From positions 20,090,001 to 20,154,000 of the forward strand of contig CM097885.1 in assembly GCA_044892525.1 (NCBI GenBank): a DNA stretch of 64,000 bases. Direction: 5' to 3'. Each line of letters begins with the position of its first letter. Within the stretch, counting starts at the first letter, position 1. The notes under the pieces are model-generated. The model was not told the DNA's origin. It did not search any database and worked only from the letters and a program-made list of their open reading frames with translations. The translations under genes and the position numbers were made by a program. The DNA is from Schmidtea polychroa. Lineage: Eukaryota. Positions 41,280 through 62,620 of the stretch are shown in pieces.

Positions 41280-44200
41280 GTGTGTAACTTTAACACCAAG
41301 TGTCAAGTATAATTTTAATAATCTTCAATGAATCACATAATTAGATTTTGGAGGATGAGTTAATAACAATTTTTCAACCTTAGACCCAGCAGGTTTCATT
41401 TTTTCAGCAGCTACAGGGAAATCATCCAACTTATCATGAAGCTCAGAAGGAATTACAAGATCAACTTCAAGAGTGTATCCATAAGACAAAGATTCAAGAT
41501 TTAAATTCCTACATTCATCCATTATTAAATCAAAGCCATCAAGAACCCAACTAAATTCGCCACAAGGTAATGATTGACTTAAAGCCCAACCATAAAGATT
41601 ATTAATATCTATATATAGTAACTCGGTGTTCTCATCGGTTTTTACGTAATGCTTATTCACAAAAGTAAGACCGCCTCTTATTCCACCCTCATAAAAGCTA
41701 AACATTTCGTTTTCAGTTATGAGCTCAATTGGTTCATTTAAAGACATTAATGCAGAAGACCAAGACATACCTGGAATTCCGAAATAATTCAATGGTTCCA
41801 ATCTATTGTGAGCAATGGATTTCAACCGAAACCGATGAAAGAAATCAGCCAAAAGAAAACAATCAAGTTTTAGGTAGATCATCATATAATCTAATAAAGT
41901 TAGGCAATTAGTTTCTACCCAAATCTCCTGAGCTTTTTCATACTCAAGCTCAGTGACACCCTCCCAGATTGGTGGTAATTCATAAGTAGTCTGGAGAATA
42001 TCTAAAGATGTGGCGAAATTATAAGGGAAGATTCCTTTTTCAGAAACTATAGTACCAGAAAAAGCAGAATTAGTAAAAGGCAAAGAATTCAAAGTTTTGA
42101 CTGCTTTAGCTAAAGAATCATTGACAAATTGATAAGAATCAATGAATCTTAAGCTAATTTTGCCTAAATGAGCAATCAAAGAAATAAATTTTTCAGTAGT
42201 TATTGGGATGCAACCTAAAGTCCAATTTTTAAATTTATTTAATCCGTATTTAAGTATATGATGCATATCGTATCCCTTCAAGTTATGAAATACGATAGGC
42301 AAAATTTTATTTATTTTCCTATTTATGTTACATGTGCTACAAGCTGCACCCAATTATTTCCCCGTAAAATGATCGTGATCTCTAACAGGATCGACGATAG
42401 ATTTCATACAAAGATAACAAACAGATGCACTAACAAATTGACGTTGTTCAATTTTTGTTAATTTCATCATAGGTTTCCTACCCATTTTATAATAAAAAGG
42501 AAGAACCTTATTTAATGCTATATCCTCTATAGCACTTAAAAACTCTCGACGCAATCTAAACCTATGAACTGTTGATAAGATTTAGATCCGTCAAAGTTAT
42601 TTACAAGTAAAAGACAAGCAGATATTGGCATGTGTCGTTGGAAATGAACATTATCAGAAGGTAAAATAGCCTCAAAAAAAACTACAAAAGGAGGAGTTAC
42701 TGTTTTCGACCAGTCAGTAAACTGTAATAATTTATTTTGAGGGAAAGTATAAAGAGTTGTTCCTAATTGATTACGTTTACATAATATTTCATGTTTGTCC
42801 AGTGCGTGTTTATACCTAAACCCATTCAAACACCGATGGCACCATAATGATTGTATGCGTGTAGAACAAGTAGTGTTGATATGACAATTCATTAACTTAT
42901 TTAAATTACTTATAGCAACGTAATGGAAATTGTTTCCTTTATTTAATAGTAGTAAATTAATTACAGTTCCATTTAAAACTTTGGAACGATGTATAATGTC
43001 TAAATGTGGATGTTTTAAAACGTAATTATCTGTTTATTGTTTGCTATTGTCATAAGAAAAAACGTTAATTATTAAGCCGGGATTTTTGGTCTCAAATTTT
43101 CTAATGTCTTTTAATTTCATGGGTAAATCTAACGGATTATATATTAAGTCGGATAAATTATAACTGGATGTCCTATTTCTATTTTGTCTACTAATCTCAT
43201 TATATTTTAAAATAGCTAAAATGCTATATAAAAAACATGAATCATCGGTATTTTTTATATTAATTAAGAATTTTTTATTTTTTAGACAAGTAGGTAGTTC
43301 AATGAAACTCCTACCACTTAATCTACTTAACCTACTTATTTTTGTTATGGTGAAGTGAATTTCTGTTATTTTTCTTATGATCCAGCTACTACCTAACTCT
43401 GTAATATTATTTATTTTCTCATTTAGTTCCCTAATGCCTTCATCAAAAAATGATGAAGTTAAAGGTTTTGCATAATTCGAAATATTATTAACCTTTATTT
43501 CCCCATCTTTTTCAAATTCGATTGTTATTCCGAATTGAATTTTGACGGAGCCTAATTCGTTAATAATATCTCTCAATTTTATAATTAATTGTTCTGGAAA
43601 TATTATTTCCTTTATATTTAAGTTACTAGTATTTAAACTTAATATTTGATGTGTACCCCTTAGATCTTTTTGTATTATGGGAACATTACCCCCTATTTGT
43701 ACAGTGGTTATTCCGTCCCAAGAATCAAAGGAAATATTATCCAATCCATCATTGGATTCACCTACATTCCAAGAATCAAGGGAAATATTATCCAATCCGT
43801 CATTGGATTCACCTACATTCCAAGAGTCAAGGGAAATATTATCCAATCCATCATTGGATTCACCTACATTCCAAGAATCAAGGGAAATATTATCCAATCC
43901 ATCATTGGATTCACCTACATTCCAAGAATCAAGGGAAATATTATCCAATCCATCATTGGATTCAACAACTAATCCATTATCGGATTCAACCTCTAATCCA
44001 TTATTGGATTCAACATCTAATCCAACCTGGGATTCAACCTCTAATCCGACCTGGGATTCAAAAGAAAAAGTATCTAATTTAATTTTTTTATCAGTAATAT
44101 TTATTTCTATACTCGAAGGTCGTTTAAAAAAACTATCTTTTTTAAAATTGAACCTATCTAAATGATGTTTATGTTTATTATAAAAAACACTATATGTTAC

Positions 44201-44334
44201 GGGGTCACTAGTCTTACATACGTTGCATATAAAAAAAGTTTTATTATAGTATTTTTTCGAGTAATAATTCTCCATTATAGAATGGCAATTATTATTATGT
44301 TCTTTCGATGAACAATAATTTGGGTAAAGTATAC
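41280..44334 (-). pseudogene. polB: Protein-primed DNA polymerase B pseudogene of the outer Polinton
   Basis: Collinear with inner pPolB (NTDDSCF, WCHRCLNGF, RDHDHFTGK, FHNLKGYD, RFIDSYQF, GIRGG, YIDINNLYGWAL); in-frame stops at 43034, 42354 and 41325, frameshift near 42545, C-terminus missing. Confidence 0.92.
43725..44060 (-). repeat. Coding tandem repeats (51-bp ESNDGLDNISLDSWNVG units, about 5 copies, plus 24-bp units) in the outer pPolB N-terminus
   Basis: Direct sequence and translation. Confidence 0.9.
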
Positions 44335-44560: not shown

Positions 44561-44934
44561 ATGTAACCTCCTATTCAGTTCCTTCAATATAATATGTACT
44601 ATTTGAAATATCCTATTACTTATTCATTCAAGGTATTTTTTTTATTTAATTATTTAATATTAATTTGTTATAGGAACCAGTTAATTTAAAAACATGTCAA
44701 TTCAATATTCAAATTGGAGATATTGGGGAAGAAGATAGAAAAAATCTTGGAGAAATTCTTAAATTAATTAATAAAGAAATGATTTTTAATGAAAAATTTA
44801 CATTTATCAATTGTGAAAAAGGATGTAAATTAGATGAAGATAAAAAGTCAAAAGTTCGAATACTTATTCAAGGAGTCAAGATAAATGGAGTTATAATTAA
44901 ACCAATTTGGAAAATTACAAATGTTTTTGAATAA
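44561..44934 (+). pseudogene. Outer Polinton homolog of inner ORF 59435-59854, two exons (intron 44633-44673), second codon is TAA
   Basis: M*PPIQFLQYNMYYLKYPI...K/EPVNLKTCQF...ILIQGVKINGVIIKPIWKI aligns with VQPVQMFHNYKMYFLKEEI...SPIKLIPTQF...ITIQGYKV...SPIWKI. Confidence 0.7.
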
Positions 44935-45489
44935 ATTTATGTATTTAAGTGTTATTTTTTATTTAAATATTTTAAAGTACAAATGTTGTTGAATAAATTT
45001 TTATTTTAAAGTTAATAATTTATAAGTTCTATCAATATAAAAAAATTTTTGCGAGGGATTTCCCCTTATTTCAAAATATTTTTTCCTCTTAAGATCAAAT
45101 AAATTTAAATATCATTATAAAAATTTAAATATCATTAAAAAAAATACTAATAATTTCATCATTAAATATCATTATAAAAAAATTTTTGCGAGGGATTTGT
45201 CTTATATCTATTTCAAAATATCGTTAATAATCAATTAAAAAATTTAATTTTCATCTTATCATTATAAAAAAAAATAGATAAAATTTTATAAAAAATATCA
45301 TTTAAAAAATTTAAATTTCATCTTATCATTATAAAAAATAGATAAAATTTTATAAAAAATATCATTTAAATTTCATTATAAAAAATAGATAAAATTTTAT
45401 AAAAAATACTTACATTTGACATTATTATTCATAGTTTCATTATTATTAATTTTCATAGTTTCATTATTATTAATTTTCATAGTTTCATT

Positions 45490-46720
45490 AGTAGGATGTG
45501 GGCCATCCAGATCATGTCCCCTCCAGATCACATATACCCCCTCCCCCCCCCACCGGGGAAAAAATTTTTTTTTTAAATAAAAGGTCAAGGTCATTTATTT
45601 TTTTTTAATTAAATTTTTTGTTTTAATTAAGTGATCCAGAGGGGACCTACTTTTTTTCTTCCCAAAAATTAATGTTCCTGCCAACAGATTTTATTGACCG
45701 ATACCTCATCTTAAAGCTCAGTCCAAGACCTTTCGAATGAGCTATAGGTATCATATATATCTTTAATAGTTTTAATGTTATTAACATTTAATGACCACCA
45801 TCTTTTAAAGTTAAATTATTATTATTTGTCAAAATATTATTAAGTGATCCAGAGGGGACCTACTTTTTGTCATCCCAAAGATTAATGTTCCCGCCAACAT
45901 ATTATATTGATCGATAGCTTATTTTAAAGCTCTGTGCAAGACCTTTCTAAGGAGATATAGATTTCTATAATATGATGACTCATCACATTTTTAAAACAAA
46001 GACAATGACTCGTCATATTTTTAGAACGATGCCTAATATTTTTAGAATGATTACGTCATAATTTTAGAACGATGTCTATTATTTTTAGAATGATGCCTAA
46101 TATTTTTAGAATGATTACGTCATACTTTTAGAACGATGCCTATTATTTTTAGAATGATGTCTAATATTTTTAGAACGATTACGTCATACTTTTAGAACGA
46201 TGCCTAATATTTTTAGAATGATTACATCATACTTTTAGAACGATGCCTATTATTTTTAGAACGATGCCTTTTAATTTTAGAATGATGCCTAATATTTTTA
46301 GAACTATTACGTAATCGATGTCTAATATTTTTAGAATGATGCCTAATATTTTTAGAATGATGCCTAATATTTTTAGAACTATTACGTAATCGATGTCTAA
46401 TATTTTTAGAACGAAGCCTAATATTTTTAGAGCGATTACGTCATACTTTTAGAACGATGCCTCTTATTTTTAGAATGATTACGTCATAATTTTAGAACGA
46501 TGCCAAATATTTTTAGAATGGTGCCTCTTATTTTTAGAACGATTACGTCATAATTTTAGAACGATGCCTAATATTTTTAGAATTAATAATTTTGTTTTAA
46601 TTATCGATGATTATATAATTTGTTTAAATCATTGATTATATAATTCTTCTGTTTTAATTATAGAATACGTAATAATATAATTTTGTTTAAATCGTTGATT
46701 ACATATTATTATTTTCTAAG

Positions 46721-46801
<81 letters not shown>

Positions 46802-46802
46802 G

Positions 46803-46887
<85 letters not shown>

Positions 46888-47044
46888 ATCTATCCGACAA
46901 GATATTCTGTCCCCCTATGGGTACTGCTCGCAAAGGTACTACTCACATTCAACAAGTTACAAATGTACTACTCACAAAGTTACTGGTAAAAATATTCAAG
47001 ACAAAACTTTCTAAATTCTAAATATTATACTTTAAATGTACACT
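45490..47044 (+). repeat. Left TIR of the inner Polinton (contains a ~20-bp minisatellite and an ATT tract)
   Basis: Reverse complement of 60306-61696, with scattered mismatches and array-length differences. Confidence 0.92.
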
Positions 47045-47273
47045 CAACTCATATATGTAGTGGTGAGCTCATACATACATTTCAAATAAAAATTTCTTTC
47101 AATAGTTAAACATGATTTATAAAAACTTTATCAATATTAATAAATATATTTATACAAGTGTTTAACATTTGTAAGAAATGTGAAAACTATAACAAGTTTT
47201 CAATAAAAATTTTAGATAATACAACAATGTAGAAGAAACGTTTTATTAAAGATATATTAACATTTATCACAGT

Positions 47274-50200
47274 TTAGTCTGACAATAAAATATCATCTAT
47301 ATCTCTTTTATCATTAGGATCATCACCAGAATCGAAATCTGGACTTAAACCATTGAAAAGTGGACCCACTTCCTCATCACCAGAAACAAAATCTGGACTT
47401 AATCCTCCGAATAGTGGCCCAACTTCTTCAAATATTTGATCATCATTTATATCATCTAGTGCTAAATAATGACCAAATGCGAGACTGGAATTTTTCCCCA
47501 CCCAAAACCGCTTGTCATCGTTGTTTGTCAACGCGATTTTATTGTTTTTAAATGTGTACAATTGATGGTTCCGCGTCCCTATCTTACTTTGTGGCACAGA
47601 AAATACTACGTTGTTATTGTAGCATTCTAAATATGAATCGTGCCTAATTTCTGTACCTATTAACCGGACTCCTTTTGCTTTTAAATGATCTTTAGCCCCT
47701 AACAAACTATAGCACTTGGGTCTTAAGAAAACCCATTCCTTATACCCTAGACCTTTACTTTCATCTTTAAATTTACCTATCACAGAATCAAGGTTTCTAG
47801 AGTATAATGGATGTGCAGGGTCATAGTTGGAAGTATCTAAAAGATTGTCACGAATCATTGCCGGCAAAAGAGTGTCAAGCTTACAGTGTCTAACCTCAAG
47901 AAAAAAGGAGTCAGTATCGCCGGCAACGATATTTATCTCACATTTAAATTCATTTCTAAATTTAGCCAATTCTATATACTGTAACTGGTACATCCTCAGT
48001 TTAGACAGGTCTAGCACCGTTTGGCCAATGTAACTAGGCCTGTCTAAACATATAGAATCCTTATATAGATGTGCAGCAATCAAGTCATCATCAATTTTGA
48101 TAGATTTCTTGAAAGTCGGCTTTGAAGCATATACAATCATCTTTTCAGCTGAATTGCATAGCCTCAAATTCATCCGTTTTTTAAGGTTTTCTACGGATTT
48201 CCCATACAGACTATTATTAAATAATTTGTATAGATCCCTATATAATTCGCATGTAGAATTGGCTCTCAAATTAGTGTTTTTGTCTATGTAAGATTTGAAA
48301 ATGGGTGCATGCTTAAATTTGATTGCTCTATGTACATTTTTAATAATAGCCCCCAATTCTATATACAACTTGAGAAGTCGCCAATGAAGAACATGGTTCT
48401 TCTTCGGCCAATGCGTGAGCATCAGCTTCTCAACTTTAGAATTTGGCGGGCACATCTTTTCCGGAGCAAGAGGAAAATCATTCAGAAAGTCATGCAAACA
48501 AACAGGTATATCGATATCTACCTCCATAGTATAACCATATGGAAGGTTATCGATATCAGCATTCATACATTCATTCAAGACAGAATCAAGATCATCATAC
48601 ACCCAAACAAAGTCAGCATAAGGCAGATTTTGGCTTAAGGCCCAACCATACAAGTTATTAATATCAATATACAAGAGTTCTGTGTCTTCAGAACTTGCAA
48701 CATAATGTTTGTTAAAAAATGTTAACCCACCCCGTATCCCTCCTTCATAGAAATTAAACATTTCCATGTCCTGCAAAAGTTCAATGGGTTCCGTTAATGT
48801 CATAAGCGCAGAGGCCCATGACATACCGGGAATGCCATAGAAATTAAGAGGCTCAAGACCATTGTAAGCAATGGCCTTTGCACGGAATTGTTGGAAATAG
48901 TCTGCGAGGAGAAACACGTTTAATTTAAGGTAAGTTAACATGTAATCTAACATGTTGTTGCAGTTTTGCTGAGTCCAAATTACTTGGGCTAATGCATATT
49001 CATCATTAGACACAGAATCCCAGATAGGTGGCAATTCAAGAGTCGATTCCAGAACCTCAAGCGAAGTTGCAAAGTCATAAGGAAAGATACCTTTGGCTCG
49101 AACAATTGCGCCATCGAAAACAGAAGAAGTTAAAGGCAGATCGGAAAGAGTCTTAACCGCTTTTGCTAAAGATGAATTAACAAACTGCATGCTGTCAATA
49201 AAACGAACAGACAATTTGTTAATGTACGCGATAAGAGAGATGAATTTCTCAGTAGTGGTCGGAATAATATTTAATTCCCAAGAAGGAAAATTATTCAAAC
49301 CATACTTCAAAATATGATGAAGATCATACCCCCTCAAATTGTGAAAGACCACAGGTAACTGTTTCTGAATTCGTCGAGAAACATTACATTTCCTACAGGC
49401 AGCACCAAGATACTTACCTGAGAAGTGGCAATGATCCCTAACTCTATTTCTAATAAATTTTTTACAAAGGTAGCAGGTTCTGGAATCACGAAAGGACCGC
49501 TCTTCAGCGAAAGACAAGGTTTGCATGGGCTTTTTCCCATTAATTTCGTAATATGGCAGGACAATTGTCATAGCAATTTCCTCCACCTTACGCAAGAAAG
49601 ATAAGATACAATCATCCCCAACAAACTCATAATAAAATTTAGAGTTATTATAATTATTTATTAATAATAAACCTGCTGTTATTGGCAAATGCTTTTGATG
49701 GTGTATTATATCCCCCGGTAAAATTGATTCAAAGTCTGCATATATCACGAATGGCGGGGTTATGGTTTTCGCATAATTTTGAAAAATTAAATTTTTATCA
49801 TTGGGTAGCGTGTATAAAGTAGTACCTATCTGGTTTTTAATGCATAAGGCAACGTGAATATCAAATGCATTTTTAAGTCGAAAACCATTGAGACAATGGG
49901 GGCACCAGTTCACTTTAATTCTAACGCCACATTCACTGCTAGAGTGACAATTCATTAATCTTTGCAAATTAAAAACTGCGGTGTAATGAAAATTATCACC
50001 GTCTTCCAATAAAAGTAAGTATAAGGGTTCACCACCTATAACCTTAGATCGGTGAATTATATCCAATTTGGGATGATGTGGAATATAATTATCGTCAACT
50101 ATATTTTCAAAAGGCTTAGCAGAGGTCGTTCTATAAGTTAAAACATTTATTGCTAAATTTAAATCCTTATTTTTCATCTCGAATTTAGGAATATCACATA

Positions 50201-51346
50201 ATTTCATTGGACAGTCGGAAATGGGGTCAAAATTTAACTCGTCAAGATAATTTTCATAGGAACTAACACGGTTCCTATTTATATGTACTACATTACGTTT
50301 TAAAAGTGCTAAAATACTATATATAAAGCACATATCATCGGTGTTTTTGACGTTTACTATTGCATTTTTAGATTTTAAAGATGATGGGGTGGGGATGTAA
50401 CTATGTCCAGCTAGCCTATTCATATGTGTAAATTTTGTTAATATAAAATCTATTTCTTTGATTTTAACAACCCGCCATCCACTACCCAAATATGTGAATT
50501 TTTCTATTTTATTATTTAATTTGTGAACCCCCTCACTTAGAAAACTATCTGAAAAAGCCTCTGCCCTATTCGAGAAGAAATTATCTTTAATTTCACCATC
50601 TTTTTCAAATTGAATCAATACAGAGAATTGTATTTTCACCGACCCCATTCTGATTATTTCATGTTTTAACTTATTAACGATTTTATCGGTTATGGATATT
50701 TGAATGATGTTATCCTTTTCTACATTAAATCTTAGATTCTTTCGAACCCCCTTAAAATCAATTTCGATTTCAGGTTCATCGTCAATATCAACTGAACCGC
50801 CTACTTGAATATTATTAACCACAGTTATTTGTTCTAATTTATTAATTTTAGAGGGAGCATCAGACCCAATACTAACAGCAGGTCTTTTTAAATTATTATT
50901 TACATTAATAACATTATTAATTAGAGGTTTTGTAATATTATTTACATGTTTTGTATTATTATTTACAGGTTTTGTAATATTATTTACATGTTTTGTATTA
51001 GTTTTAATTACAGGTTTTGTAATATTATTTACAGGTTTTGTATTATTATTTACAGGTTTTGTAATATTATTTACAGGTTTTGTATTATTCACATTAGTTT
51101 TAATTATAGGTTTTGCGGTATTTCGTAGTTTGTTAAATAAATCCTTTTTATTTAAAGAGAACTGATTTAAATGGGATTTATGAATACTGTAAAACTCTAA
51201 ATATTTAATGCTATGGGAAGTCTCGCATATTGGGCATATATAGTACTTGATGCCATAAAATTTACGACCATAATATTTTTTCATCACTTTATGACATAAA
51301 TTTGAGTGACCAGTTGAAGCCTGGCAGTAATGTGGATATAATTTGC
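47274..51346 (-). CDS. polB: Protein-primed DNA polymerase B polyprotein (N-terminal Zn finger and repeat linker, putative terminal protein, OTU-like protease, ZnF, endonuclease VII-like insert, exonuclease, polymerase); probably has an upstream exon
   Basis: Over 1337 aa; YADFES, FHNLRGYD, GIRGG, YIDINNLYG, KLFNNSLYGK, GDTDS, RPKCY, KAKGV; frame stays open upstream to an AG acceptor at 51347. Confidence 0.96.
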
Positions 51347-51469
51347 CTGTTAATTATATTTATCAATTAATATTAATCATGAAATTGTATTTATATTAAT
51401 AAAGTCTTGTAAACTATAAATGTGTGATTTTATTATTATTATTATTATTATTATCATTATTATCATTAT

Positions 51470-51940
51470 TGATGCAGCTGCATGCAGATTACATTTAAAG
51501 ATTATAATTATTACATAATAAATAGTTGATGCAGCTGCATGCAGACTATATTTAATAAGGGTTAATTATTACGTAATAAATAGTTTGTTGCAGCTGCATT
51601 TAGACACATTTAATAAAGGGTATGTATTACGTAATAAATATTTAGTTTGATGTAGCTGCATGCTCACTGCAGACTACATTTATTGGGGCAATCATGATAA
51701 AAGAGATATGTAGCTGCATGCTGACTGCAGACTACATTTATTGGGGCAATCATGATAAAAGAGATATGTAGCTGCATGCTGACTGCAGACTACATTTATT
51801 GGGGCAATCATGATAAAAGAGATATGTAGCTGCATGCTCACTGCAGACTACAAGATATATTTTTATTACTATTTTTAATATTATTATTATTATTATTATT
51901 ATTATTTTAACTAATGTAGTTGCTCATTGCAAACTACAAG
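51470..51940. repeat. Array of ~58-bp units, each with an imperfect palindrome TGTAGCTGCA-TGCTSAC-TGCAGACTACA
   Basis: Near-exact units start at 51651, 51709, 51767 and 51825; degenerate units at about 51471, 51528, 51587 and 51916. Confidence 0.85.
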
Positions 51941-51972
51941 GAATATATTAAAACTATTGTTTCTTAAATACT

Positions 51973-52190
51973 TTTTCATCATTTTCTTCATCATAATATT
52001 TTCATCATTTTCTTCATCATAATATTTTCATCATTTTCTTCATCATAATATTTTCATCATTTTCTTCATCATAATATTTTCATCATTTTCTTCATCATAA
52101 TATTTTCATCATTTTCTTCATCATCATAATATTTTCATCATTTAGTCGACATAACATTTTCAATTTCATCATAATATTTTCTTCATTTTC
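51973..52190. repeat. 26-bp tandem repeat TTCATCATTTTCTTCATCATAATATT
   Basis: Direct sequence. Confidence 0.9.
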
Positions 52191-52292
52191 ATAATAAGTT
52201 TTTATAAATAAGTTTTTAAAGAAAATGTTTAAAAAGTATTTAAGAAATTTACAAGGTTTTTAAAAAAATAAATATATAAAAATAAATAAATA

Positions 52293-52858
52293 CTAACATC
52301 GTGATTCCATGTCGGAATCTGATTCATTATCAGCAACCTCCTCAATAGAAGTGAGGGCATTATCCACATTAACAAGCTCCTCGATTGTATTATCCACATA
52401 ATTCAACTCATCGATAGAAGTCAGTGCATTATTCATCTCCTCAATAGAATCATTATTAATTGGAACATCGATTTCAGCGTCCATGTCAACATTAAACACT
52501 AAAATGATTTTTAAAAAATAATATACTAAAATAAAATAAATTTACTTTGTTCATTAAAAACATTGTTTTGCCTAACAAATAAGGCATCATTATCCGGGGC
52601 ATCATTTTGCCCAATAAACACGACATCATCATCGTCGCTAATTATAATAGGTTCTAAATAAAATAATAATTTCATAAAAATTAAAATATTTAAATTTACC
52701 GAAAATCCTATCAACATTCAAAATTGAATCATCTTCAGTCACTTGGTACCATAAATTCTCTAAAATAATAAATAAAAATAATAATAATAATAACTAAATA
52801 ATTTACCATTTTCACCCATCAACATGGCATTCAAAATTTTGTGTAAATCAGCGTCCAT
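52293..52858 (-). CDS. Four-exon acidic protein, 141 aa (exons 52858-52807, 52759-52700, 52653-52546, 52498-52293)
   Basis: Three GTAAAT...TAG introns of 47, 46 and 47 bp, all phase 1, give a continuous ORF MDADLHKILNAML...PIIISDDDDVVFI...DSDMESRC. Confidence 0.75.
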
Positions 52859-52916
52859 TTTAATTTAAAATTTGTAAATTTAAGAATAATTATGACGAAT
52901 TTTAGAATTGTCAATG

Positions 52917-53002
52917 TTTATATAGAACAGGAATATTTCCATGTCTCAACCAATCAGAATTTAGACACATTCCTGAATACTTTTTCCTCTATCAGCCAAT
53001 CA
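52917..53002 (-). promoter_or_regulatory. Pol II promoter: TATA box and two CCAAT boxes
   Basis: TATATAAA on the minus strand at 52917-52924, about 60 bp above the ATG; CCAATC at about 52950 and 52996. Confidence 0.6.
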
Positions 53003-53091
53003 AATGGTAGCAAATGGGATTGCATATCTTTGTGCATGCACAATGTTTGTATAGTTAGATAATAATATTTTTCAAAATAAATTTAATTAAA

Positions 53092-53170
<79 letters not shown>

Positions 53171-53177
53171 TAATAAT

Positions 53178-53217
<40 letters not shown>

Positions 53218-53244
53218 TAATAATAATAATAATAAAATAATAAT

Positions 53245-53293
<49 letters not shown>

Positions 53294-53326
53294 TAATAAT
53301 AATAATAAAATAATAATATTAATAAT

Positions 53327-53399
<73 letters not shown>

Positions 53400-53428
53400 T
53401 AATAATAATAATAATAATAATAAAATAA

Positions 53429-53459
<31 letters not shown>

Positions 53460-53470
53460 AACAACAACAA
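53092..53470. repeat. (AAT)n microsatellite
   Basis: Direct sequence. Confidence 0.95.
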
Positions 53471-53489
53471 AGGATACAAAATACATTTA

Positions 53490-53873
53490 TTAATCATCAA
53501 ATTTTTTATACAACAACCAAGCTAAACAATGTTGACCGCATGTTTGTGTCAAGGGATTTTGAAACATTGTTTTATTATATACAATAGGTTTCCCCATTGT
53601 TTGTAGTTTTGATACCAACAAAGCAGGGTAATAGAAACCCATAGGATCGAACACGAATATATTACTAGGTTTCAGATATATAGCAATCCAATGTTCTCCA
53701 CCAAGATGAGACGATTGAGTATTGACGATTATGGCTTGATTATTGCTCAAATATGGGATTTTATCGAGAGGAAAAACTCCTACAAATTCATTTCCCAATA
53801 TCTGTTTTCCAATTCTATTGACCTGAACAGAACTACTTTAATAAATTAAACAGTATTGAAAAACTTACTCCAT
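53490..53873 (-). CDS. Adenain-like cysteine maturation protease with an intron after the first 5 nt (intron about 53868-53833)
   Basis: MD/SVQVNRIGKQILGNEFVGVFPLD...GEHWIA...FDPMG...QNPLTQTCGQHC: His-Asp-Gln-Cys set. Confidence 0.9.
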
Positions 53874-53901
53874 GACAACTTTTTGGTGTTTCTGTATACA
53901 T

Positions 53902-55125
53902 TTATACTAGCACGGTTCTATTTGCAGTAATTTGAACTTCATTTTCAAATACTCCATATATAATAACATGTACCGGTTCAGTAATGGCCTTTGCAAACTT
54001 TATATCCAGTCGTAAATTCCCGTTTTGTGGTAATTGACTCTGATTTAAATCAAAATCGGGAGCTAGAACAAATGTGAAAAATGGGTATTTGCTTTTAAAT
54101 TCTTCAAGAGTTATTCCGCAATTCAAGTTTTTATCTAAATAACCCAGATTTCTAACAATACTCTGCATATATGTCGCACAGTAATTATCATTCTCGAAAT
54201 CTTGAGTATATGTTTCTCTATAATCAGTATTTTTCGATAAAGTCAATGAAGTAACACCAAAATTTTTGAAAATTGAGCTGGAAGCAGTATACGATCCATT
54301 ATATTGCGTTTCACTTTGAAATGTTACCAGAATAAAATTAGGCATTCTTCTGTCACCAAATATTTGTTCTTTATAGAATGATGAAGCACCTTTAGCAATA
54401 GCAAATTGTACAATTTCCTTTGTTTTTAAAGGATAAATTGCATGTTTTGAATTAAGCCCCAATTGATGACCAGCTAATACTGACGGGTCTACTCGAACTC
54501 TTCTCACCAATAATTTTGCATCAACTAATTGACATATTGGTGCACCAGTTGCACTAGTAAGAGACAATGCAGAATCAGATCTTTTCAGTCTAATATGTAT
54601 ATTAACTCCCGGTAGTAAATATTTCGGTTGATCCATAAAATCAAGTTGTAATGATGAGCACATAGTGAATACTTTTGAGCCTTTAACCCACTTTTTTCTT
54701 TCATCATCTGCTGCTGCATAACCCATAGGTGTAAGACAGGTATTTTTAGTATCTGAATTGTAATTTAAAATAGTTTCTATCAAAGCCTTGTGAATGAATG
54801 TATTATTTCCACCCTCAATCTTGATATTATTAAATCCCAACACTGCATCTTTAAACAGAGTATGAAACATGAAATTGTTTGGTAATACATCCGCATTGGC
54901 ATCCAAAACCTTTCTATCTTTATCTACAACCTTGATCTGAACAGTCAATAAAGTATCGTTCAAATCTAAATATTCAGTTTGCGAACCATTAATATAAAAC
55001 TCGATATCATTTCTACTATCAGTAATTGAATTCATAGGAAAAACTTCCTCAAAGGCACCAAATTCTATTACTGCCTGGGGCGACGGTCTATCAAATATAC
55101 ATAATTCGGATTTACCACAAATCAT
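53902..55125 (-). CDS. Major capsid protein (double jelly-roll type)
   Basis: 407 aa; KSELCIF start, IEFYING..EYLDLNDTLL, QPKYLLPGVNIHIRLKR, GNLRLDIKF: typical Polinton MCP pattern. Confidence 0.9.
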   Translation of the reverse strand: MICGKSELCIFDRPSPQAVIEFGAFEEVFPMNSITDSRNDIEFYINGSQTEYLDLNDTLLTVQIKVVDKDRKVLDANADVLPNNFMFHTLFKDAVLGFNNIKIEGGNNTFIHKALIETILNYNSDTKNTCLTPMGYAAADDERKKWVKGSKVFTMCSSLQLDFMDQPKYLLPGVNIHIRLKRSDSALSLTSATGAPICQLVDAKLLVRRVRVDPSVLAGHQLGLNSKHAIYPLKTKEIVQFAIAKGASSFYKEQIFGDRRMPNFILVTFQSETQYNGSYTASSSIFKNFGVTSLTLSKNTDYRETYTQDFENDNYCATYMQSIVRNLGYLDKNLNCGITLEEFKSKYPFFTFVLAPDFDLNQSQLPQNGNLRLDIKFAKAITEPVHVIIYGVFENEVQITANRTVLV

Positions 55126-55484
55126 TTTGCAAATATAGTTCCATGTCCTTTCATTCGTTTGTTTATACGCGATATTCCATGCCCTTTACGTTTTGGAGCT
55201 GGGACTGGAGGTGTATCTTTTTGAAACATACCAGCAACTCCAGGTAGAACCTTCCCTAACTCAGCTAAAGCATTTGTTTTTAGAGATGGTAATATTTTCT
55301 GTTCATTCATAATCACATCTTTTGCAGTTTTCATACCAAAACTACCAATACGTTTAAGAATAGGAAGTGCAAATCTCCCTATTGTTTTTAACCAACCTGA
55401 TCCGTACTGTTTACCAATAAAATATGGTAATTCACCACCGGATTGGCTATCACTATACATACTAATAATATCGGAATTAGCCAT
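55122..55484 (-). CDS. Putative virion core protein with protease-cleavage-like sites
   Basis: SQSGG, QYGSGWLKTIGRFALPILKRIG amphipathic helix, basic tail; stop overlaps the MCP ATG (ATGA). Confidence 0.75.
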   Translation of the reverse strand: MANSDIISMYSDSQSGGELPYFIGKQYGSGWLKTIGRFALPILKRIGSFGMKTAKDVIMNEQKILPSLKTNALAELGKVLPGVAGMFQKDTPPVPAPKRKGHGISRINKRMKGHGTIFAK

Positions 55485-56544
55485 CTACTTTACGAAAATG
55501 TAGTGTCAAATGAGTTTTTGAGTCTTTTGGGAAGTTTATAAGTTTTCCACTATCGTCACGAATATTTATTTCTATATTGTTTATACATGAGCTTGAAATT
55601 GGTAAATACATGGGATTATCTATATTTATATTGACAACTTCATCATGTTCATATTTTCCAATCCACACCGATTTCAATAGAGGAACACTGGAATCACCAA
55701 CTATTATAGGCTCAATAATATTAGTATATATGAACATTTGTTGATGATGTTCAAGTATTCTTGGTTTACGTATACCAGCCGATTTTTCCCGATATTGCTG
55801 CTTCTCTAATCCAAGTGTATTTGTCAAATTTTTATCAAATGTAACTTCGCAAATGTCATCATTCAAACTGAAGGTAAATAACAAATCTTTCACAATATCC
55901 AAACTTTTAAATATGTGTGAACAATTATACTTTAAATATTTAAGTAACACATCAAGTTTATCAATATATAATTCGTCAGCGAAGGTGAATGATTCTTCAA
56001 CTTCATTATTATACGACACTGAAATTTTGATTTCTTCTCTCATTACACTGTTTGCTTCAAATAGATCAAAGCGTAATAAATATTCTGTTTCCATAACTTC
56101 ATTTTTCAACTTATTGCAACCCATTCGTCTGGCATCTTCAATATATTCGAATTTTATTGTAAATGGTTTAAAATCACAACTGATATTTAATCCATCCTTG
56201 TAAAACATAGTGCAATGCTGATCTAATATTTGATTCGGAATATGATATGTTTTATCATAATTACTGATAATAAAGATACCACTACATGTTTTCATAGCAT
56301 TCCTTTTGAAATCAATCTTACATTGACTATAAAATGGGAATGTATTGTACACGAATGTAAAATCTTGCAGTGCAACTTCCCAGTCACCATTTAAAGAAAT
56401 CGGATTCTGGAGATTGACCATGAATTTACTGGCTTGATTATCTGGATGAATAAGCGGGCAACTATTGCTTGGTAAAATAGTATAAAAATTCACTTTACTA
56501 GATCCTTTTCTGATATCCATGATGGGTTTTGATAACCATGCCAT
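55477..56544 (-). CDS. Minor capsid protein (penton); true start uncertain
   Basis: FYTILPSNS...NPISLNGDWEVAL; MFIYTNIIEP..VGD...PLL; IEINIRDDSGKLINF...LTLHFRK. Confidence 0.88.
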   Translation of the reverse strand: MAWLSKPIMDIRKGSSKVNFYTILPSNSCPLIHPDNQASKFMVNLQNPISLNGDWEVALQDFTFVYNTFPFYSQCKIDFKRNAMKTCSGIFIISNYDKTYHIPNQILDQHCTMFYKDGLNISCDFKPFTIKFEYIEDARRMGCNKLKNEVMETEYLLRFDLFEANSVMREEIKISVSYNNEVEESFTFADELYIDKLDVLLKYLKYNCSHIFKSLDIVKDLLFTFSLNDDICEVTFDKNLTNTLGLEKQQYREKSAGIRKPRILEHHQQMFIYTNIIEPIIVGDSSVPLLKSVWIGKYEHDEVVNINIDNPMYLPISSSCINNIEINIRDDSGKLINFPKDSKTHLTLHFRKVDG

Positions 56545-57548
56545 TTGACATAGTATTGTTTATCCTTGCCTTTATTTTTAGTTTTCAAAATCTTCTGAAT
56601 TCTAAATACTTTTGGGGGAGGAATAACTTGTAATTCCTGCTCATAAAATTTTCCTTGTACAATATTGTTATCATTATCTTTGATGACATACATTACAGGA
56701 TTCTGTTTAGTATTTATTTTTGAAATTACAAAGACTTCATCACTCCAATTTGTATCGAAATTTTTAATAAATGGTGATGCACTAATTTTACTAATTCTAA
56801 CATGGTCACCTACTTTATATTTCGGTTTTGTAATTTTTTCAGGTTTTTTAGAATAGATTGTTTTTGACGTGATATCAATCGGCCTTAATCCATTCAGTCC
56901 TTGATGTGATGAGTGATTATAACTGGTTATTATTTTTGGTAAAACCAATACCCATTTTTTATTACCTTGATGCACGAATAATTTCTTTAATCTATCTCTC
57001 AAAGTTCGGTTAAATCTTTCAACATGAGCAGCTTTGTATTGAGAATGTACTGAGTAATGGTTTATTTTCAATTTATTGAGGATTTGCTTGACTTTACTGT
57101 TGTAGAATTCTTTACCTAAAATAATAATAATAATAATATTAATAATAATAATATTAATACCTAAATCAGTTTGCAAGTTTTTAGGATGTCCATCTTTAAA
57201 TAAATGATTAACAGCTTTGGACATTTCATCTGCAGATTTTGCCTTGACGGGTATTGCTCGGGCAAACCGACTGAATACATCAATACATGTTAAAATATAT
57301 TTATACCCATTGTTAATTTTCGAATAGGGTATCATCTCCATCAAATCCATTTGCCATAAATCATTTATTCCATATGTTTTATATGCTCTTGTTGGGAATC
57401 GTTTCCGCATTGGTTTGTTCAAACTGTACGCAAGCTGGTCTGATAACCACTTCTGTGTTTCCTTTTTCGAATTCGGAACTCTTTTCCTTAATTTTGCCAC
57501 TCCACCAAAACCGGCTTCGTCTTCCGGGTTCGTCCAAATCTTCTCCAT
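56490..57548 (-). CDS. int: Retroviral-type integrase with C-terminal chromo-like domain; 45-bp intron 57160-57116
   Basis: WQMDL, IDVFSRFA, QTDLG/KEFYN after splicing, KAAHVERFNRTLR, YYVKWHGY. Confidence 0.93.
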   Translation of the reverse strand: MEKIWTNPEDEAGFGGVAKLRKRVPNSKKETQKWLSDQLAYSLNKPMRKRFPTRAYKTYGINDLWQMDLMEMIPYSKINNGYKYILTCIDVFSRFARAIPVKAKSADEMSKAVNHLFKDGHPKNLQTDLGINIIIINIIIIIILGKEFYNSKVKQILNKLKINHYSVHSQYKAAHVERFNRTLRDRLKKLFVHQGNKKWVLVLPKIITSYNHSSHQGLNGLRPIDITSKTIYSKKPEKITKPKYKVGDHVRISKISASPFIKNFDTNWSDEVFVISKINTKQNPVMYVIKDNDNNIVQGKFYEQELQVIPPPKVFRIQKILKTKNKGKDKQYYVKWHGYQNPSWISEKDLVK

Positions 57549-57606
57549 TACAACAAGAAGATTTAATATTAAATTTAATGTCTGGTAATGAAGGATTAGC
57601 ACCCAT
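57379..57606 (-). CDS. Small putative N-myristoylated protein overlapping the integrase 5' end
   Basis: MGANPS fits MGxxxS; SSCC; ATG 3 nt after the upstream stop codon. Confidence 0.6.
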   Translation of the reverse strand: MGANPSLPDIKFNIKSSCCNGEDLDEPGRRSRFWWSGKIKEKSSEFEKGNTEVVIRPACVQFEQTNAETIPNKSI

Positions 57607-57609
57607 TGT

Positions 57610-58150
57610 TTATGATCGACTTCCTATTATTCCACCTAATAATGATATTGCTAAAGGTATCAATGCACCGATAAATCCCCCTTGTTGTTTATATATAATT
57701 TTTCTCATTTGTTGACGATTTTTATTATTTACTAATGATAGCAAAGGTTTCCTATGTTTACTCAATAATTGCTTTTTAGATTTACTGATTTTAATCTTGC
57801 CTTTGACTACTTTAAGTATAATATCGAGTAAATCATCGACAACATAATTTGGAAATGATTGCAAAATACTGTTTCTTTTCATACTTGGTGCCTTTAACAA
57901 TGTATTGAAAAACGGGAAACTCCGATGATTTTTAACAACTTTTACTTTCTTAGTGGTTTTACTTTTAGGTTTAGGTTTAGGATTTTTCGAAATAAGATTC
58001 ATTGCAGGAAAATTTTCTGTAATAAGATCTTTAGATGGAGTATAACTAGTTGTTGGTGGAACTTTTGGTTGTTTTTTACCCGATATCCTTGTTTTTGAAA
58101 ACTTGATTTATATGTTTTCAACTTTGTTTTGAACTTTGTTTATATACCAT
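57610..58150 (-). CDS. Basic virion protein with C-terminal GG-F amphipathic peptide; start at 58002, or ATG 58150 plus a 46-bp intron (58147-58102)
   Basis: Lys-rich body ending KQQGGFIGALIPLAISLLGGIIGSRS; frame open to 58101. Confidence 0.75.
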
Positions 58151-58756
58151 GGCACCTTTTGGGTTGAAAATATCTGTTTTTACCCGTATATCATCAGGGC
58201 ATTGTTGTGTGAAATCGAGAAATATATACCCATGCGGTATTTTCGTGGCATCTTGAAATGCACTGATAAGAAAATTACGGTTATTAGGGTATGCTTGTCG
58301 TCCAAGAAAATCAATGACAGTTGCATCTCTAGGATTCTTGAAAATAACTAAATATTGTACATTTAAATTACGTGTTCGATGTGCACCACCTTGATGAAAT
58401 AGATTTTGTGTTATGAAAATAACTGTTACACCAACATGTCTGCTGATTTTTGTGAATAAATTATTAAAGTCCTTTTCTTTATTGGCTTCTTGATACAAAT
58501 CATCGATAATGATGACATCATCTTTCTTCAAACGACTTGACCAGTTTTTATCAAAGCCCTTTACTATTTTCATGTTTTTCAACTGACAGAAACTTGATTG
58601 CGTCAATCCGTGTTCTTCGTCGGCGCCCCTATGCCAATAAATATTGTTGAATTTTGTTTTAAACAAATTTGATTTTAGTAATTTACAAACAAATAAAGTT
58701 TTCCCGCTACCACTTGGACCAACGATTTGGTATACTGCATCATTTCGTAATTCCAT
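58118..58756 (-). CDS. A32/FtsK-like genome packaging ATPase
   Basis: Walker A GPSGSGKT, Walker B IIIDD, SRH, ITQNLF, FKNPRD. Confidence 0.93.
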   Translation of the reverse strand: MELRNDAVYQIVGPSGSGKTLFVCKLLKSNLFKTKFNNIYWHRGADEEHGLTQSSFCQLKNMKIVKGFDKNWSSRLKKDDVIIIDDLYQEANKEKDFNNLFTKISRHVGVTVIFITQNLFHQGGAHRTRNLNVQYLVIFKNPRDATVIDFLGRQAYPNNRNFLISAFQDATKIPHGYIFLDFTQQCPDDIRVKTDIFNPKGAMVYKQSSKQS

Positions 58757-58861
58757 TTTTTAAAATTTAAACTATATAATTATTGTTTATATTGATAATT
58801 TAAATGAACTCTGTTTTTAAATACCTATATATATCAAAGTTTTTAAAATTATTTCATTAAA

Positions 58862-59326
58862 ATGCTTTCAAATATAAATTACAGGGCAAAAACTGATGTA
58901 TCAAAAATGATATTTCCAATAGGGAAACCACAACAACTTATCAATAGAAGTAATAAATATCCAATAATATATTTCAAAACTGGTAAATGTAGAATTATGG
59001 GGTGTAAGGAAATAATCAAAGCTAGTGAATATAATGTTTATGATTTAGAAATACAATCGATAACCGTAACTTCCGATATAGGTTTTTCTTGTAATTTAAA
59101 TAAATTAGCTAAATTAATACCATGCTTTTATGAACCAGAATTATTTCCAGCTTTGAGATATATAAAATATAACCCTATGTGTGTAAATATATTCGCTAGC
59201 GGTAAGATAGTAATTCTTGGAATAAAAAATATTGATTACAAAAGTATAGTTGATAATATCATATCTGAAATTAAATCAATAATTGAAGGAAAAGAATTTT
59301 TAGATTTTTTATTATCACTTAATTAA
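58862..59326 (+). CDS. TATA-binding protein (TBP)-like protein, 154 aa, encoded by the Polinton
   Basis: Two TBP repeats: LSNIN...IIYFKTGKCRIMGCK and IQSIT...CNLNKLA...YEPELFPALRY...VNIFASGKIVILGIK. Confidence 0.88.
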   Translation: MLSNINYRAKTDVSKMIFPIGKPQQLINRSNKYPIIYFKTGKCRIMGCKEIIKASEYNVYDLEIQSITVTSDIGFSCNLNKLAKLIPCFYEPELFPALRYIKYNPMCVNIFASGKIVILGIKNIDYKSIVDNIISEIKSIIEGKEFLDFLLSLN

Positions 59327-59364
59327 TTATTTATCATTCAATTAAAACAAAAACATACTGCAAT

Positions 59365-59400
59365 CTGATTGGATGATAAACAATAGTCATAGGTATAAAA
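59365..59400 (+). promoter_or_regulatory. Inverted CCAAT box plus TATAAAA promoter of ORF 59435
   Basis: CTGATTGG at 59365; TATAAAA at 59394-59400. Confidence 0.55.
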
Positions 59401-59434
59401 ACCCTGTACCATTTCATTTTAATCATAATTCACA

Positions 59435-59854
59435 ATGACCAAGAAAATTTCAAGCACTGAAAAACCAAAAGTAGTTCCAGAACTTGTACAACCTGTTCAA
59501 ATGTTCCACAACTACAAGATGTATTTTTTAAAAGAAGAAATCAATATGAAATTGGTGTCACCGATCAAGCTAATTCCTACCCAATTTCAATTCTTAACCG
59601 GCACGCTTTCAATGTTAGATATTAAAACCATAGATGATGTTTTCAAAAGGTTGAATACGAATCTATCATGCAATCAAAATGCATTTTTCAACAACCGATA
59701 TGCAAAATTTTATGATTCCTTTGATGAAATCAGTTTCAAAGAAAACGAAAATTGGTATATAACAATTACAATCCAAGGATATAAAGTTGATAATAATGAT
59801 GTGTATTCTCCAATTTGGAAAATTATGTCTGCTAGACTTTCACAGTTATTTTAA
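59435..59854 (+). CDS. Conserved Polinton protein, 139 aa, possibly OB-fold ssDNA-binding
   Basis: Homolog in the outer element; C-terminal beta-strand pattern ITITIQGYKV...SPIWKI; function inferred only. Confidence 0.7.
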   Translation: MTKKISSTEKPKVVPELVQPVQMFHNYKMYFLKEEINMKLVSPIKLIPTQFQFLTGTLSMLDIKTIDDVFKRLNTNLSCNQNAFFNNRYAKFYDSFDEISFKENENWYITITIQGYKVDNNDVYSPIWKIMSARLSQLF

Positions 59855-59950
59855 TGTTGTATTTAATAAATGTATTTAGTCATATTTGTTTTCGCTTATA
59901 TTCTATATTTTCTATAAACAAATATATACTATAGTTTTAAAATACTAATA

Positions 59951-60309
59951 ATGACTACAGAAAAAGGTTAATATGATTAGTTAATTATCGAATTATTTAA
60001 TATTTAGAATTTATAATAAACTTTTTATTGGAAAAGTTAGCAGAAATATCTGGTGTGAAAATTGAGGACATATTATCTGTTACAAACGCATTAAATATCG
60101 GCTGGGTAGCAGAGAGTGAAGATTCGGAATTTGATGAAACAGATGAAGAAAACACTCAAGATGATGAGGAAAGCATTCAAGAAATTGATGAACCTATGGA
60201 GGAATTTACGGATACTGAACCGTGTGTATATAGGGATTGTATAGATCATGTTGTTGAAAATGTTATGAACTGTGGAGATGATGAATGTGAATGTGTTAAT
60301 AAATTTTAG
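59951..60309 (+). CDS. Two-exon acidic protein with Cys/His-rich C-terminus, 105 aa (intron 59967-60007)
   Basis: ATG ACT ACA GAA AAA G/gt...ag/AA joins in frame to ORF 60028; acidic core and CVYRDCIDH...CGDDECEC. Confidence 0.7.
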
Positions 60310-60478
60310 TGAATATTTAAAGAATAATATTTAGAATTTAGAAAGTTTTGTCTTGAATATTTTTACAAGTAATTTTGTGAACAGTACCCTTGTGACTTGT
60401 TGAGTGTGAGTAGTACATTTGTGTGCAGTATCCTTAGGGGGACAGAATATTTTGTCGGATAGACTCTGTGTATATATG

Positions 60479-60550
<72 letters not shown>

Positions 60551-61696
60551 CTTAGAAAATAATAATATGTAATCAACGATTTAAACAAAATTATATTATT
60601 ACGTATTCTATAATTAAAACAAAAGAATTATATAATCAATGATTTAAACAAAATTATATAATCATCGATAATTAAAACAAAATTATTAATTCTAAAAATA
60701 TTAGACATCGTTCTAAAAGTATGATGTAATCATTCTAAAAATAATTGGCATCGTTCTAAAAATATTAGACATCGTTCTAAAAGTATGACGTAATCGTTCT
60801 AAAAATATTAGGCATCGTTCTAAAAATATTAGGCATCGTTCTAAAAGTATTACGTAATCGCTCTAAAAATATTTGGCATCGTTCTAAAAATATTAGGCAT
60901 CGTTCTAAAAATATTTGGCATCGTTCTAAAAATATTAGACATCGATTACGTAATAGTTCTAAAAATATTAGGCATCGTTCTAAAAATATTAGGCATCGTT
61001 CTAAAAGTATGACGTAATCGTTCTAAAAATATTAGGCATCATTCTAAAAATAATAGACATCGTTCTAAAAATATTTGGCATCATTCTAAAATATTAGACA
61101 TCATTCTAAAAATGTGATGAGTCATTGTCTTTGTTCTAAAAATGTGATGAGTCATCGTATGATAAAAATCTATATCTCATTAGAAAGTTCTTGCACAGAG
61201 CTTTAAAATAAGCTATCGATCAATATAATATGTTGGCGGGAACAATAATTTTTGGGATGAAAAAAAGTAGGTCCCCGCTGGATCACTTAATAATATTTTG
61301 AAAAATAATAATAATTTAACGTTGAAAAGATGGTGGTCATCAATTGTTAATAACATTAAAACTATTAAAGATATATAAGATACCTATAGCTCATTCGAAA
61401 GGTCTTGGACTGAGCTTGAAGATGAGGTATCGTTCAATAAAATTTGTTGGCGGGAACATTACTTTTGGGAAGAAAAAAAGTAGGTCACTGCTGGACCAAT
61501 TAATTTAAAAAAAATTACGTAATAGTTCTAAAAATATTAGGCATCGTTCTAAAAATATTAGGCATTGATTACGTAATAGTTCTAAAAATATTAGGCATCG
61601 TTCTAAAAAAAAAAATAAAATTTTTCAGACCGGCGGGGGGAGGGGGTATATGTGATCTGGAGGGGACATGGTCTGGGGAGCCCACATCCTACTACT
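60306..61696 (-). repeat. Right TIR of the inner Polinton
   Basis: Reverse complement of 45490-47044; ends CTACTACT. Confidence 0.92.
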
Positions 61697-62241
61697 TTCA
61701 TTATTAGCATTTTTCATAGTTTCATTATTATTAATTTTCATAGTTTCATTATTATTAATTTTCATAGTTTCATTATTATTCATTTTTGATTTTTTATCTA
61801 AAAATAATTAAATTTTAATAATTAAAAAATAAAATTCTTACAATCCTTGGTACTTGCAAATTATGACCAAATTTAAAAAACAAATCATTTATATACTTCT
61901 TCTTCTACTTAATACATTACGTAATTATTAAAGGATTAAATTTGATATTTAATACCTTGCGTAATAATTAAAGGATTAAATACCTTACATAATAATTAAA
62001 GGATTTAATGCCTTACATAATTAACTTAATTAAAGATTTAGTTTAATAAATTTTAATAATCAACTAAAAATTTATTGAAATAATTTAATAATCAGCTAAA
62101 AATTTATTGAAATAATATTTAAATTGTTGATCGAGCAAATAACTTGGGATGATGGTTATATAAGCTCGAACATTTAATTGTGAATATTATTTTGTTTTGT
62201 GAATAAATTATTTTAAAAAAACAGCTTTTTATTATAAAAAT

Positions 62242-62620
62242 TTATTTCATTGACTTTAACCAAGCCAAACGATGTTGTCCACATGTTTTTGTTATAGGAT
62301 TTTGGTAACGTATTCGATTGCATTCAATTGGCATTAACATTGATTGTAGTTTATTGATTAATATAGGTGGATAATAGAATCCCATTGGATCAAATGCATA
62401 TATTTTGTTTGGTTTCACGTATACTGCAAGCCAATGTTCACCATTCAGATTAGCAGATTGAGTATTTACAATTATTGCTTTGTTGACATCTAAATAAGGT
62501 ATTTTGTCTAATGGGAAAACACCTAGAAATTCTTTTCCTAGTAATTTTCTTCCGATAATATGTATCTGAATAGAACTAAATTAATAATAATTAAATAATT
62601 TAAATTAATTCTTACTTCAT
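62242..62620 (-). CDS. Outer Polinton cysteine protease (intron 62615-62576)
   Basis: MN/SIQIHIIGRKLLGKEFLGVFPLDKIPYL...NGEHWLA...FDPMG...QNPITKTCGQH. Confidence 0.85.

Follow-up and report, generated by a model that had tools for sequence, protein, structure and literature searches.

Short candidate spliceosomal introns, one of them apparently old, in the genes of an animal Polinton

The 64,000 nucleotides (nt) analyzed here (the window; positions 20,090,001 to 20,154,000 of contig CM097885.1, Schmidtea polychroa assembly GCA_044892525.1) are A+T-rich animal DNA. A sodium/calcium exchanger (NCX) gene, with an exon matching animal proteins at 72-78%, begins near 36.5 kb and extends leftward to 2 kb. 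The window also contains a complete Polinton (the inner element), several genes of which, we propose, are interrupted by short introns of the ordinary GT-AG type (Table 1). Its terminal inverted repeats (TIRs; about 45490-47047 and 60305-61696) measure roughly 1.4-1.55 kb, are 78-81% alike with gaps included and end at 45490 and 61696, with the 6-bp target-site duplication (TSD) TTCATT on either side. The inner element is nested in a second, decayed Polinton (the outer element): its landing site is a 24-nt tandem repeat of the outer element that resumes at both flanks (45400-45490 and 61697-61800), which is clean evidence of nesting. The outer polymerase is spread over several frames and the outer capsid gene has an internal stop. 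The two capsid proteins are 66% identical and are sisters in the capsid tree. About 72,000 pieces in the contigs of public run X8 matched the inner coding region at 90-100%, which indicates a family with many variants.

Besides TIRs and a 6-bp TSD, the inner element encodes a protein-primed family B DNA polymerase, a retrovirus-type integrase (PF00665, 5e-08), a packaging ATPase (PF04665, 2e-07), an adenovirus-type protease (PF00770, 6e-07) and a double jelly-roll capsid protein. The outer polymerase matched PF03175 in Pfam at 2e-20; the inner one gave no such match at E 0.01, yet it has exonuclease and polymerase motifs and a DNA likeness of 65% to the outer stretch that matched. The predicted capsid model (pLDDT 78) matched the capsids of PBCV-1, iridovirus and mavirus, with a best E of 2e-16. 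The gene at 55477-56559, without a family match in Pfam or PHROGs, we take to be a minor capsid gene, and its neighbor at 55122-55484 a small conserved gene; these labels come from gene order.

Table 1. Features of the inner and outer elements, in window positions.
Feature	Position	Strand	Remarks
Inner Polinton, complete	45490..61696		TIRs and 6-bp TSD
Outer-element polymerase	41325..44334	-	in several frames; acceptor 44334 at same codon and phase as inner
Extra intron in outer-element homologue of the 59435 gene	44633..44673	+	41 nt
Protein-primed DNA polymerase B, body exon	47274..51346	-	polymerase motifs; acceptor 51347/51346 (phase 1); first ATG only at 51284
Proposed intron from acidic exons to polymerase	51347..52297	-	951 nt; donor GTTAGT at 52297; tandem repeats inside; inferred
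Four acidic exons	52293..52858	-	52, 60, 108 and 201 nt (to donor); ATG 52858; TATAAAC 64 nt upstream; probable polymerase leader, or 141-residue protein if last donor unused
Acidic intron 3	52499..52545	-	47 nt, phase 1
Acidic intron 2	52654..52699	-	46 nt, phase 1
Acidic intron 1	52760..52806	-	47 nt, phase 1
Adenovirus-type maturation protease	53490..53873	-	PF00770; 5-nt start exon 53873-53869, body from 53832
Conserved protease intron	53833..53868	-	36 nt, phase 2, GTAAGT..TAG
Double jelly-roll major capsid protein	53902..55125	-	intron-free; structure model matches
Small conserved gene and putative minor capsid gene	55122..56559	-	55122-55484 and 55477-56559; labels from gene order
Retrovirus-type integrase with chromodomain	56490..57548	-	PF00665, PF00385
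Candidate integrase intron	57116..57160	-	45 nt, phase 1; in frame, stop-free; ATT-repeat interior; AG|GT site; lineage-specific
Conserved frame downstream of ATPase	57610..58107	-	basic N-terminal part; first ATG 58002; TATAAAC box 58144
A32-type packaging ATPase	58118..58756	-	intron-free; PF04665
Short TBP-like gene	58847..59326	+	PF00352; intron-free here; 40-nt intron splits L004 homologue
Conserved gene of no assigned family	59435..59854	+	intron-free here; introns at two differing places in outer element and L026
Small acidic gene	59951..60309	+	16-nt start exon; probable 41-nt intron 59967-60007; TATAAAC 38 nt upstream
Outer-element protease	62242..62620	-	shared intron of 40 nt at 62615-62576; ATG preceded by TATAAAC at 34 nt

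An initial annotation of this DNA had proposed short GT-AG introns in both elements, and every pair that it named is present in the sequence: 36 nt in the inner and 40 nt in the outer protease gene, 45 nt in the integrase gene, 47, 46 and 47 nt among the acidic exons, 41 nt at 59967-60007 and 46 nt at 58147-58102. A strict scan for short introns returned five acceptors in the inner coding region, every one on the sense strand; shuffled sequences gave 0.3, and none of 200 shuffles reached five. A metagenome scan yielded 50 related loci, eight of them with a protease gene; two scans of viral contigs turned up no relative. When the element was searched together with the 50 loci, the pattern ATG-NN-GTAAG..AG at 33-55 nt matched 22 positions out of 390,924.

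The protease intron is, on this comparison, nearly certain to be real. In both window elements the gene opens with ATG and two further nucleotides, followed by GTAAG, an A+T-rich interior and AG, and then by T-TCT and the protease body, so the shared intron position reported by the initial annotation stands. Read unspliced, the protease frame has its first in-frame Met only downstream of the catalytic His. The same ATG-RA|GTAAG..AG|T arrangement recurs in six of the eight protease-bearing loci (five independent ones, since L015 and L016 are near-copies, 99% alike). Intron lengths are 39, 39, 40, 47, 47 and 37 nt in these loci and 36 and 40 nt in the window, falling into all three classes modulo 3; the acceptor is TAG or CAG in seven of the eight elements and AAG in one. 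At 45-64% protein identity among the intron-bearing proteases, this distribution supports an old intron inherited across the clade. The remaining two loci lack the intron and have an in-frame ATG at the same spot; a 100/100 branch of the capsid tree sets them apart. In L015, a strong 48-nt GT-AG candidate near the 3' end of the protease gene (5651-5698, plus strand) is possibly a second intron.

Database proteins bear on this intron as well. A Met stands at the conserved start of 89 of 120 database proteases; it is missing from 24 of the 35 closest, compared with 7 of the next 85, and the 24 had been called with read-through or truncated N-termini. The warning that plain calling of open reading frames (ORFs) misreads these genes thus applies to the protease, whereas the integrase insert, being in frame and stop-free, is merely read through as 15 extra residues. 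Some close relatives (P0246, P0366 and all six members of the P0266 cluster) begin M-D-S or M-N-S, which is the predicted splice product; we read them as cases of probable intron loss or cDNA origin. Sister copies in public-run contigs keep both ends of the intron while its interior varies, so the loss of GT or AG in sister copies, which the initial annotation had named as refuting, was not seen at this intron. In X2 and X3, which represent one sample, 15 interior letters are replaced by 16, with the same loose end in X1, and copies in X1 and X8 have one letter added inside the intron. All ten insertion or deletion rows listed are frame-neutral provided that the protease intron is non-coding, and three database proteins of the 96% type contain a read-through of the interior that fits the 15-to-16-letter variant.

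It is conceivable that the intron has been retained as a control device, splicing efficiency limiting or delaying the maturation protease while unspliced RNA would offer only a two-residue frame. Its position has been kept at 45-64% protease identity whereas other introns come and go, and the unspliced frame stops at codon 3 in eight of eight cases. That stop, however, follows automatically from a phase-2 GTAAG donor, close relatives without the intron exist and show it to be dispensable, and an intron adjoining the 5' end of a gene is in general simply hard to lose. Small start exons annotated in adenovirus for pTP (9 nt) and IVa2 (13 nt; PMC2397415) offer a parallel, and still we consider regulatory retention unlikely.

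The integrase insert differs from the protease intron in its age. It lies directly 3' of the TDLG motif, and exactly its 15 residues are missing from all 120 of the best homologues among 2208 hits and from all 44 loci that cover the site (the other six fall short of it). Removal of 57160-57116 therefore restores the motif, as had been claimed, and the absence of the insert from all of these points to a precise insertion of recent date into an AG|GT site. The site itself is present in at least ten intron-free loci. By these comparisons the insert is young and lineage-specific, and it is quite likely a spliced intron: its 45 nt, 0% G+C, 60% T and TTTTAG end agree with the other introns, and the rest of the integrase gene keeps an open frame with 48-73% identity to relatives. 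A less probable reading is that the insert is not spliced: an (ATT)n repeat would have entered this copy or family, lengthening the integrase by 15 hydrophobic residues and probably inactivating it. The insert is in frame and stop-free, its interior resembles a microsatellite, and no relative seen has it; moreover, the seven letters TTAGGTA stand at both ends, and a stop-free repeat insertion of this kind would bring GT-AG ends along with it.

Upstream of the polymerase, the three introns between the acidic exons all start with GTAAAT and end with TTTAG, contain 2-5% G+C as against 27-38% in their flanks, and leave a single frame open throughout. We hold them to be real with high confidence. 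The initial annotation had described these exons as a separate four-exon gene. Its three phase-1 introns stand; the separate gene probably does not, as the same acceptor codon in the outer copy and a leader in L026 suggest a polymerase leader instead. We lean towards the reading that the four exons are spliced over the 951-nt intron onto the polymerase and form its N-terminus. The GTTAGT donor just ahead of the exon-4 stop is in phase 1, as is the acceptor in the polymerase frame, and in the 20 codons between this acceptor and the first polymerase ATG the residues P, C, H, C and H are invariant in all three aligned elements. The L026 polymerase is preceded by an acidic mini-exon and linked to it in frame over three short introns (50, 53 and 49 nt). 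The host NCX gene has kilobase introns, so that a length of 951 nt is not unusual. On the other side, the TATAAAT at 51395 might drive transcription of the polymerase by itself, the 951-nt gap contains five AATAAA hexamers, matching phases would arise by chance in one case out of three, and the outer polymerase yielded no leader exons.

The stand-alone model, in which the stop at 52293 closes the acidic gene and a separate box precedes a polymerase start at 51284, is possible but doubtful. It would account for exon 4 running on to a stop followed by poly(A)-like hexamers, and for the TATAAAT at 51395. It sits poorly with the Cys/His codons kept upstream of 51284 in three of three elements, with the identical acceptor in both window elements and with the spliced leader in L026. 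A single unit could also make both the acidic protein and, by way of the leader, the polymerase. Inside the proposed long intron, 51420-52140 holds short palindromes and tandemly repeated units, some of 26 nt and others of about 58 nt. The polymerase reading frame (47274-51353) includes an endonuclease VII-like (HNH) stretch and an N-terminal Cys/His domain; the repeat linker behind this domain varies from one element to another.

The initial annotation also had introns supplying start codons or frames, which is upheld for the protease and is likely for the small acidic gene at 59951. Unspliced, the latter would yield six residues, and its body lacks a Met before residue 66; a TATAAAC box precedes its ATG by 38 nt, a distance comparable to those of the ATPase (35 nt) and the capsid gene (42 nt). 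We consider its 41-nt intron probable. Its donor is, admittedly, weaker and was not picked by the strict scan, and a search with the body returned one real homologue, a protein only and thus uninformative on the intron.

A further intron, suggested for a gene near 58150 (58147-58102), was rejected and is very unlikely. The 46-nt segment is 57% A and 22% T and ends in AAG; its donor is part of the V-Y-K-Q tail of the ATPase, and no Met precedes the tail in any locus (29 matches in 26 loci). The TATAAAC box at 58144 lies inside it, and a separate basic ORF starts 33-37 nt past the box in 13 of 13 loci examined, chosen from 18 close loci with near-duplicates left out. The window copy has no ATG at that distance and may be damaged there or may start at 58002. 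The box is embedded in the last codons of the ATPase (V/I-Y-K-Q), a tail that may be conserved for the promoter's sake. In L001, L004-L006, L008, L010 and other loci, a Lys/Arg-rich ORF of 50-72 residues, possibly a DNA-condensing core protein, lies between the ATPase and the next conserved gene, while in the window the basic stretch shares one frame with the gene after the ATPase.

Other genes vary in intron content. The homologue of the 59435 gene has its extra intron in the outer element at one place and a 43-nt intron in L026 at another, and the TBP-like gene of L004 is split by a 40-nt intron. Gain and loss of introns have thus differed from family to family, alongside a single old intron, that of the protease.

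The candidate introns are very probably spliceosomal. As in introns of the U2 type, the protease intron keeps its GT donor and, in seven of eight elements, a YAG acceptor while length and interior are free, and removal restores the homologous protein for the integrase and a start like that of intron-free relatives for the protease. Our interpretation, which rests on sequence comparison and to which we assign a probability of roughly 85%, is that this animal Polinton lineage is transcribed in the nucleus and spliced by its host's ordinary GT-AG spliceosome. Several observations weigh against it. Among 14 public runs, none on record as RNA, the contigs of X1, X2, X3 and X8 were compared over 53500-60330 only, and no spliced junction was observed; of 175 joints the 15 shown include none at a candidate intron, which gives no verdict on splicing. 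The integrase site, being repetitive, was passed over in this comparison, and the stretch did not take in the acidic exons. No TATAAA occurs within 80 nt of the start exon in the six loci carrying the protease intron, and none of the 50 loci has a homologue of the acidic exons. All 24 Met-less proteases do fall on the intron side of a protease tree, together with seven Met-start proteins, but this was a quick tree whose branch (support 84, unstarred) is used cautiously. Finally, the protease intron interiors are no less alike than the exons (0.55-0.77 versus 0.54-0.81, excluding the near-identical pair), because A+T richness gives a high background. Branch-point motifs were inconsistent among the candidate introns and were not used as evidence.

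Could there be no introns at all, only A+T-rich spacers or decay, with the protease made from a non-ATG start or by translational read-on? The missing RNA junction, the very A+T-rich genome and the decay of the outer element are compatible with this. We nevertheless regard it as almost certainly wrong, given that GTAAG, AG and phase are kept in eight elements despite variable length, that the null rates are low and that intron-free relatives match the splice product.

Under the nuclear, host-spliced reading, the host RNA polymerase II would transcribe the element in the nucleus, with transcripts starting behind TATAAA(C) boxes 33-64 nt ahead of the start codons, and the U2 spliceosome would remove the short introns. 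Excision of 36-47 nt would give the protease its Met and the integrase a normal catalytic core, and joining the four acidic phase-1 exons to the polymerase over the 951-nt intron would provide an N-terminus. Both the gain of introns at AG|G sites and their loss via cDNA are established ideas. While resident in host chromatin, the elements might acquire introns at sites of the AG|G type, pass them on to their copies and occasionally lose them. The initial annotation had likened the element's introns to the short NCX introns of 46-59 bp and concluded that there had been long co-adaptation to this host's spliceosome. The sizes of 36-47 nt do overlap the low end of the four short NCX introns (46, 46, 49 and 59, or 55, nt), although the same gene also has kilobase introns. 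Such co-adaptation is not demonstrated: the comparison covers four short host introns, too few to establish it, the integrase intron is young, and the same protease intron occurs in metagenome contigs whose DNA is at best about 65-74% identical to the window.

More speculatively, and with considerable doubt, the whole clade might run a spliced program like that of a miniature adenovirus, in which an ancestral start-codon intron gates the protease, the acidic leader is alternatively spliced to the polymerase or ended as its own protein, and introns turn over fast. If so, these elements would make a manageable system for studying both how introns turn over and how a virus depends on hosts able to splice introns of 36-47 nt.

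Further observations concern other parts of the elements and of the window. The TBP-like protein matched PF00352 at 2.5e-15, and seven of the 50 loci encode one as well; PMC8502044 carries a TBP label in the legend to a figure. In L001, L002, L003 and L006 the putative minor capsid gene is duplicated in tandem, and an ORF at about 230-714 of L006 (minus strand), within a related Polinton, resembles by eye a ubiquitin-conjugating (E2) enzyme. Within a long NCX intron, 18198-22513 is a retrotransposon whose identical 317-nt long terminal repeats indicate a recent insertion, with gag and pol across three frames. A G+C-richer ORF of 253 codons without a Pfam match (39968-40729, minus strand) adjoins the truncated end of the outer polymerase and probably belongs to another element.

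These introns matter for how such elements are found and scored. Surveys of polinton-like viruses run prokaryotic gene finders on the assumption of no introns, as described in the accessible parts of PMC10120064 and PMC9356565, and PMC8097293, as far as its accessible text goes, gives intact status to intronless copies only. A clade with introns would count as broken in such surveys or be given wrong N-termini, as is the case for 24 of the 35 closest proteases. An intron inherited within a gene for virion maturation would tie the lineage to nuclear, host-spliced transcription, and old, new and lost introns within one small element make intron gain and loss directly testable.

Our literature search found no report of inherited spliceosomal introns in the core genes of animal Polintons; its coverage was partial with respect to subscription journals, Repbase notes and supplements, so that a prior mention is possible. 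The accessible parts of 10.1101/2023.08.22.554363, 10.64898/2026.07.28.741278 and 10.1101/2022.07.28.501842 contain nothing on such introns, and PMC12220804, in the part available, describes group I introns in cryptophyte elements. Closer in kind are the introners reported from polinton-like viruses of dinoflagellates (PMC12166617, accessible text), mobile copies of which about 25% lie in coding regions. Both cases involve intron-type insertions within integrated polinton-like elements. Unlike those introners, the protease intron is conserved in position across divergent elements, and its interiors show background likeness only; the integrase insert has a 7-letter end repeat. Adenoviruses likewise use the host spliceosome and obtain start codons from tiny upstream exons, predicted in HAdV-37 for pTP (9 nt) and IVa2 (13 nt; PMC2397415), but they are non-integrating and have long alternative introns. 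In the rows examined of the table in that paper, protease-side late genes and the polymerase are listed without such an exon, and we claim no homology of the introns. The closest relatives in overall design are the animal Polintons or Mavericks (adintoviruses), which, according to the accessible text of PMC8097293, bioRxiv 10.1101/2022.07.12.499685 and PMC8502044, share the TIRs, 6-bp TSD, protein-primed PolB, rve integrase, packaging ATPase, adenovirus-type protease and double jelly-roll capsid. The core genes of intact animal Mavericks are described as intronless in vertebrates (PMC8097293) and in nematodes, where introns occur in cargo genes (bioRxiv 10.1101/2022.07.12.499685), a trait that lies outside the definition quoted in PMC8502044. 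The element described here departs from that trait: its core protease and integrase genes appear to carry short GT-AG introns, one of them probably ancestral to the clade.

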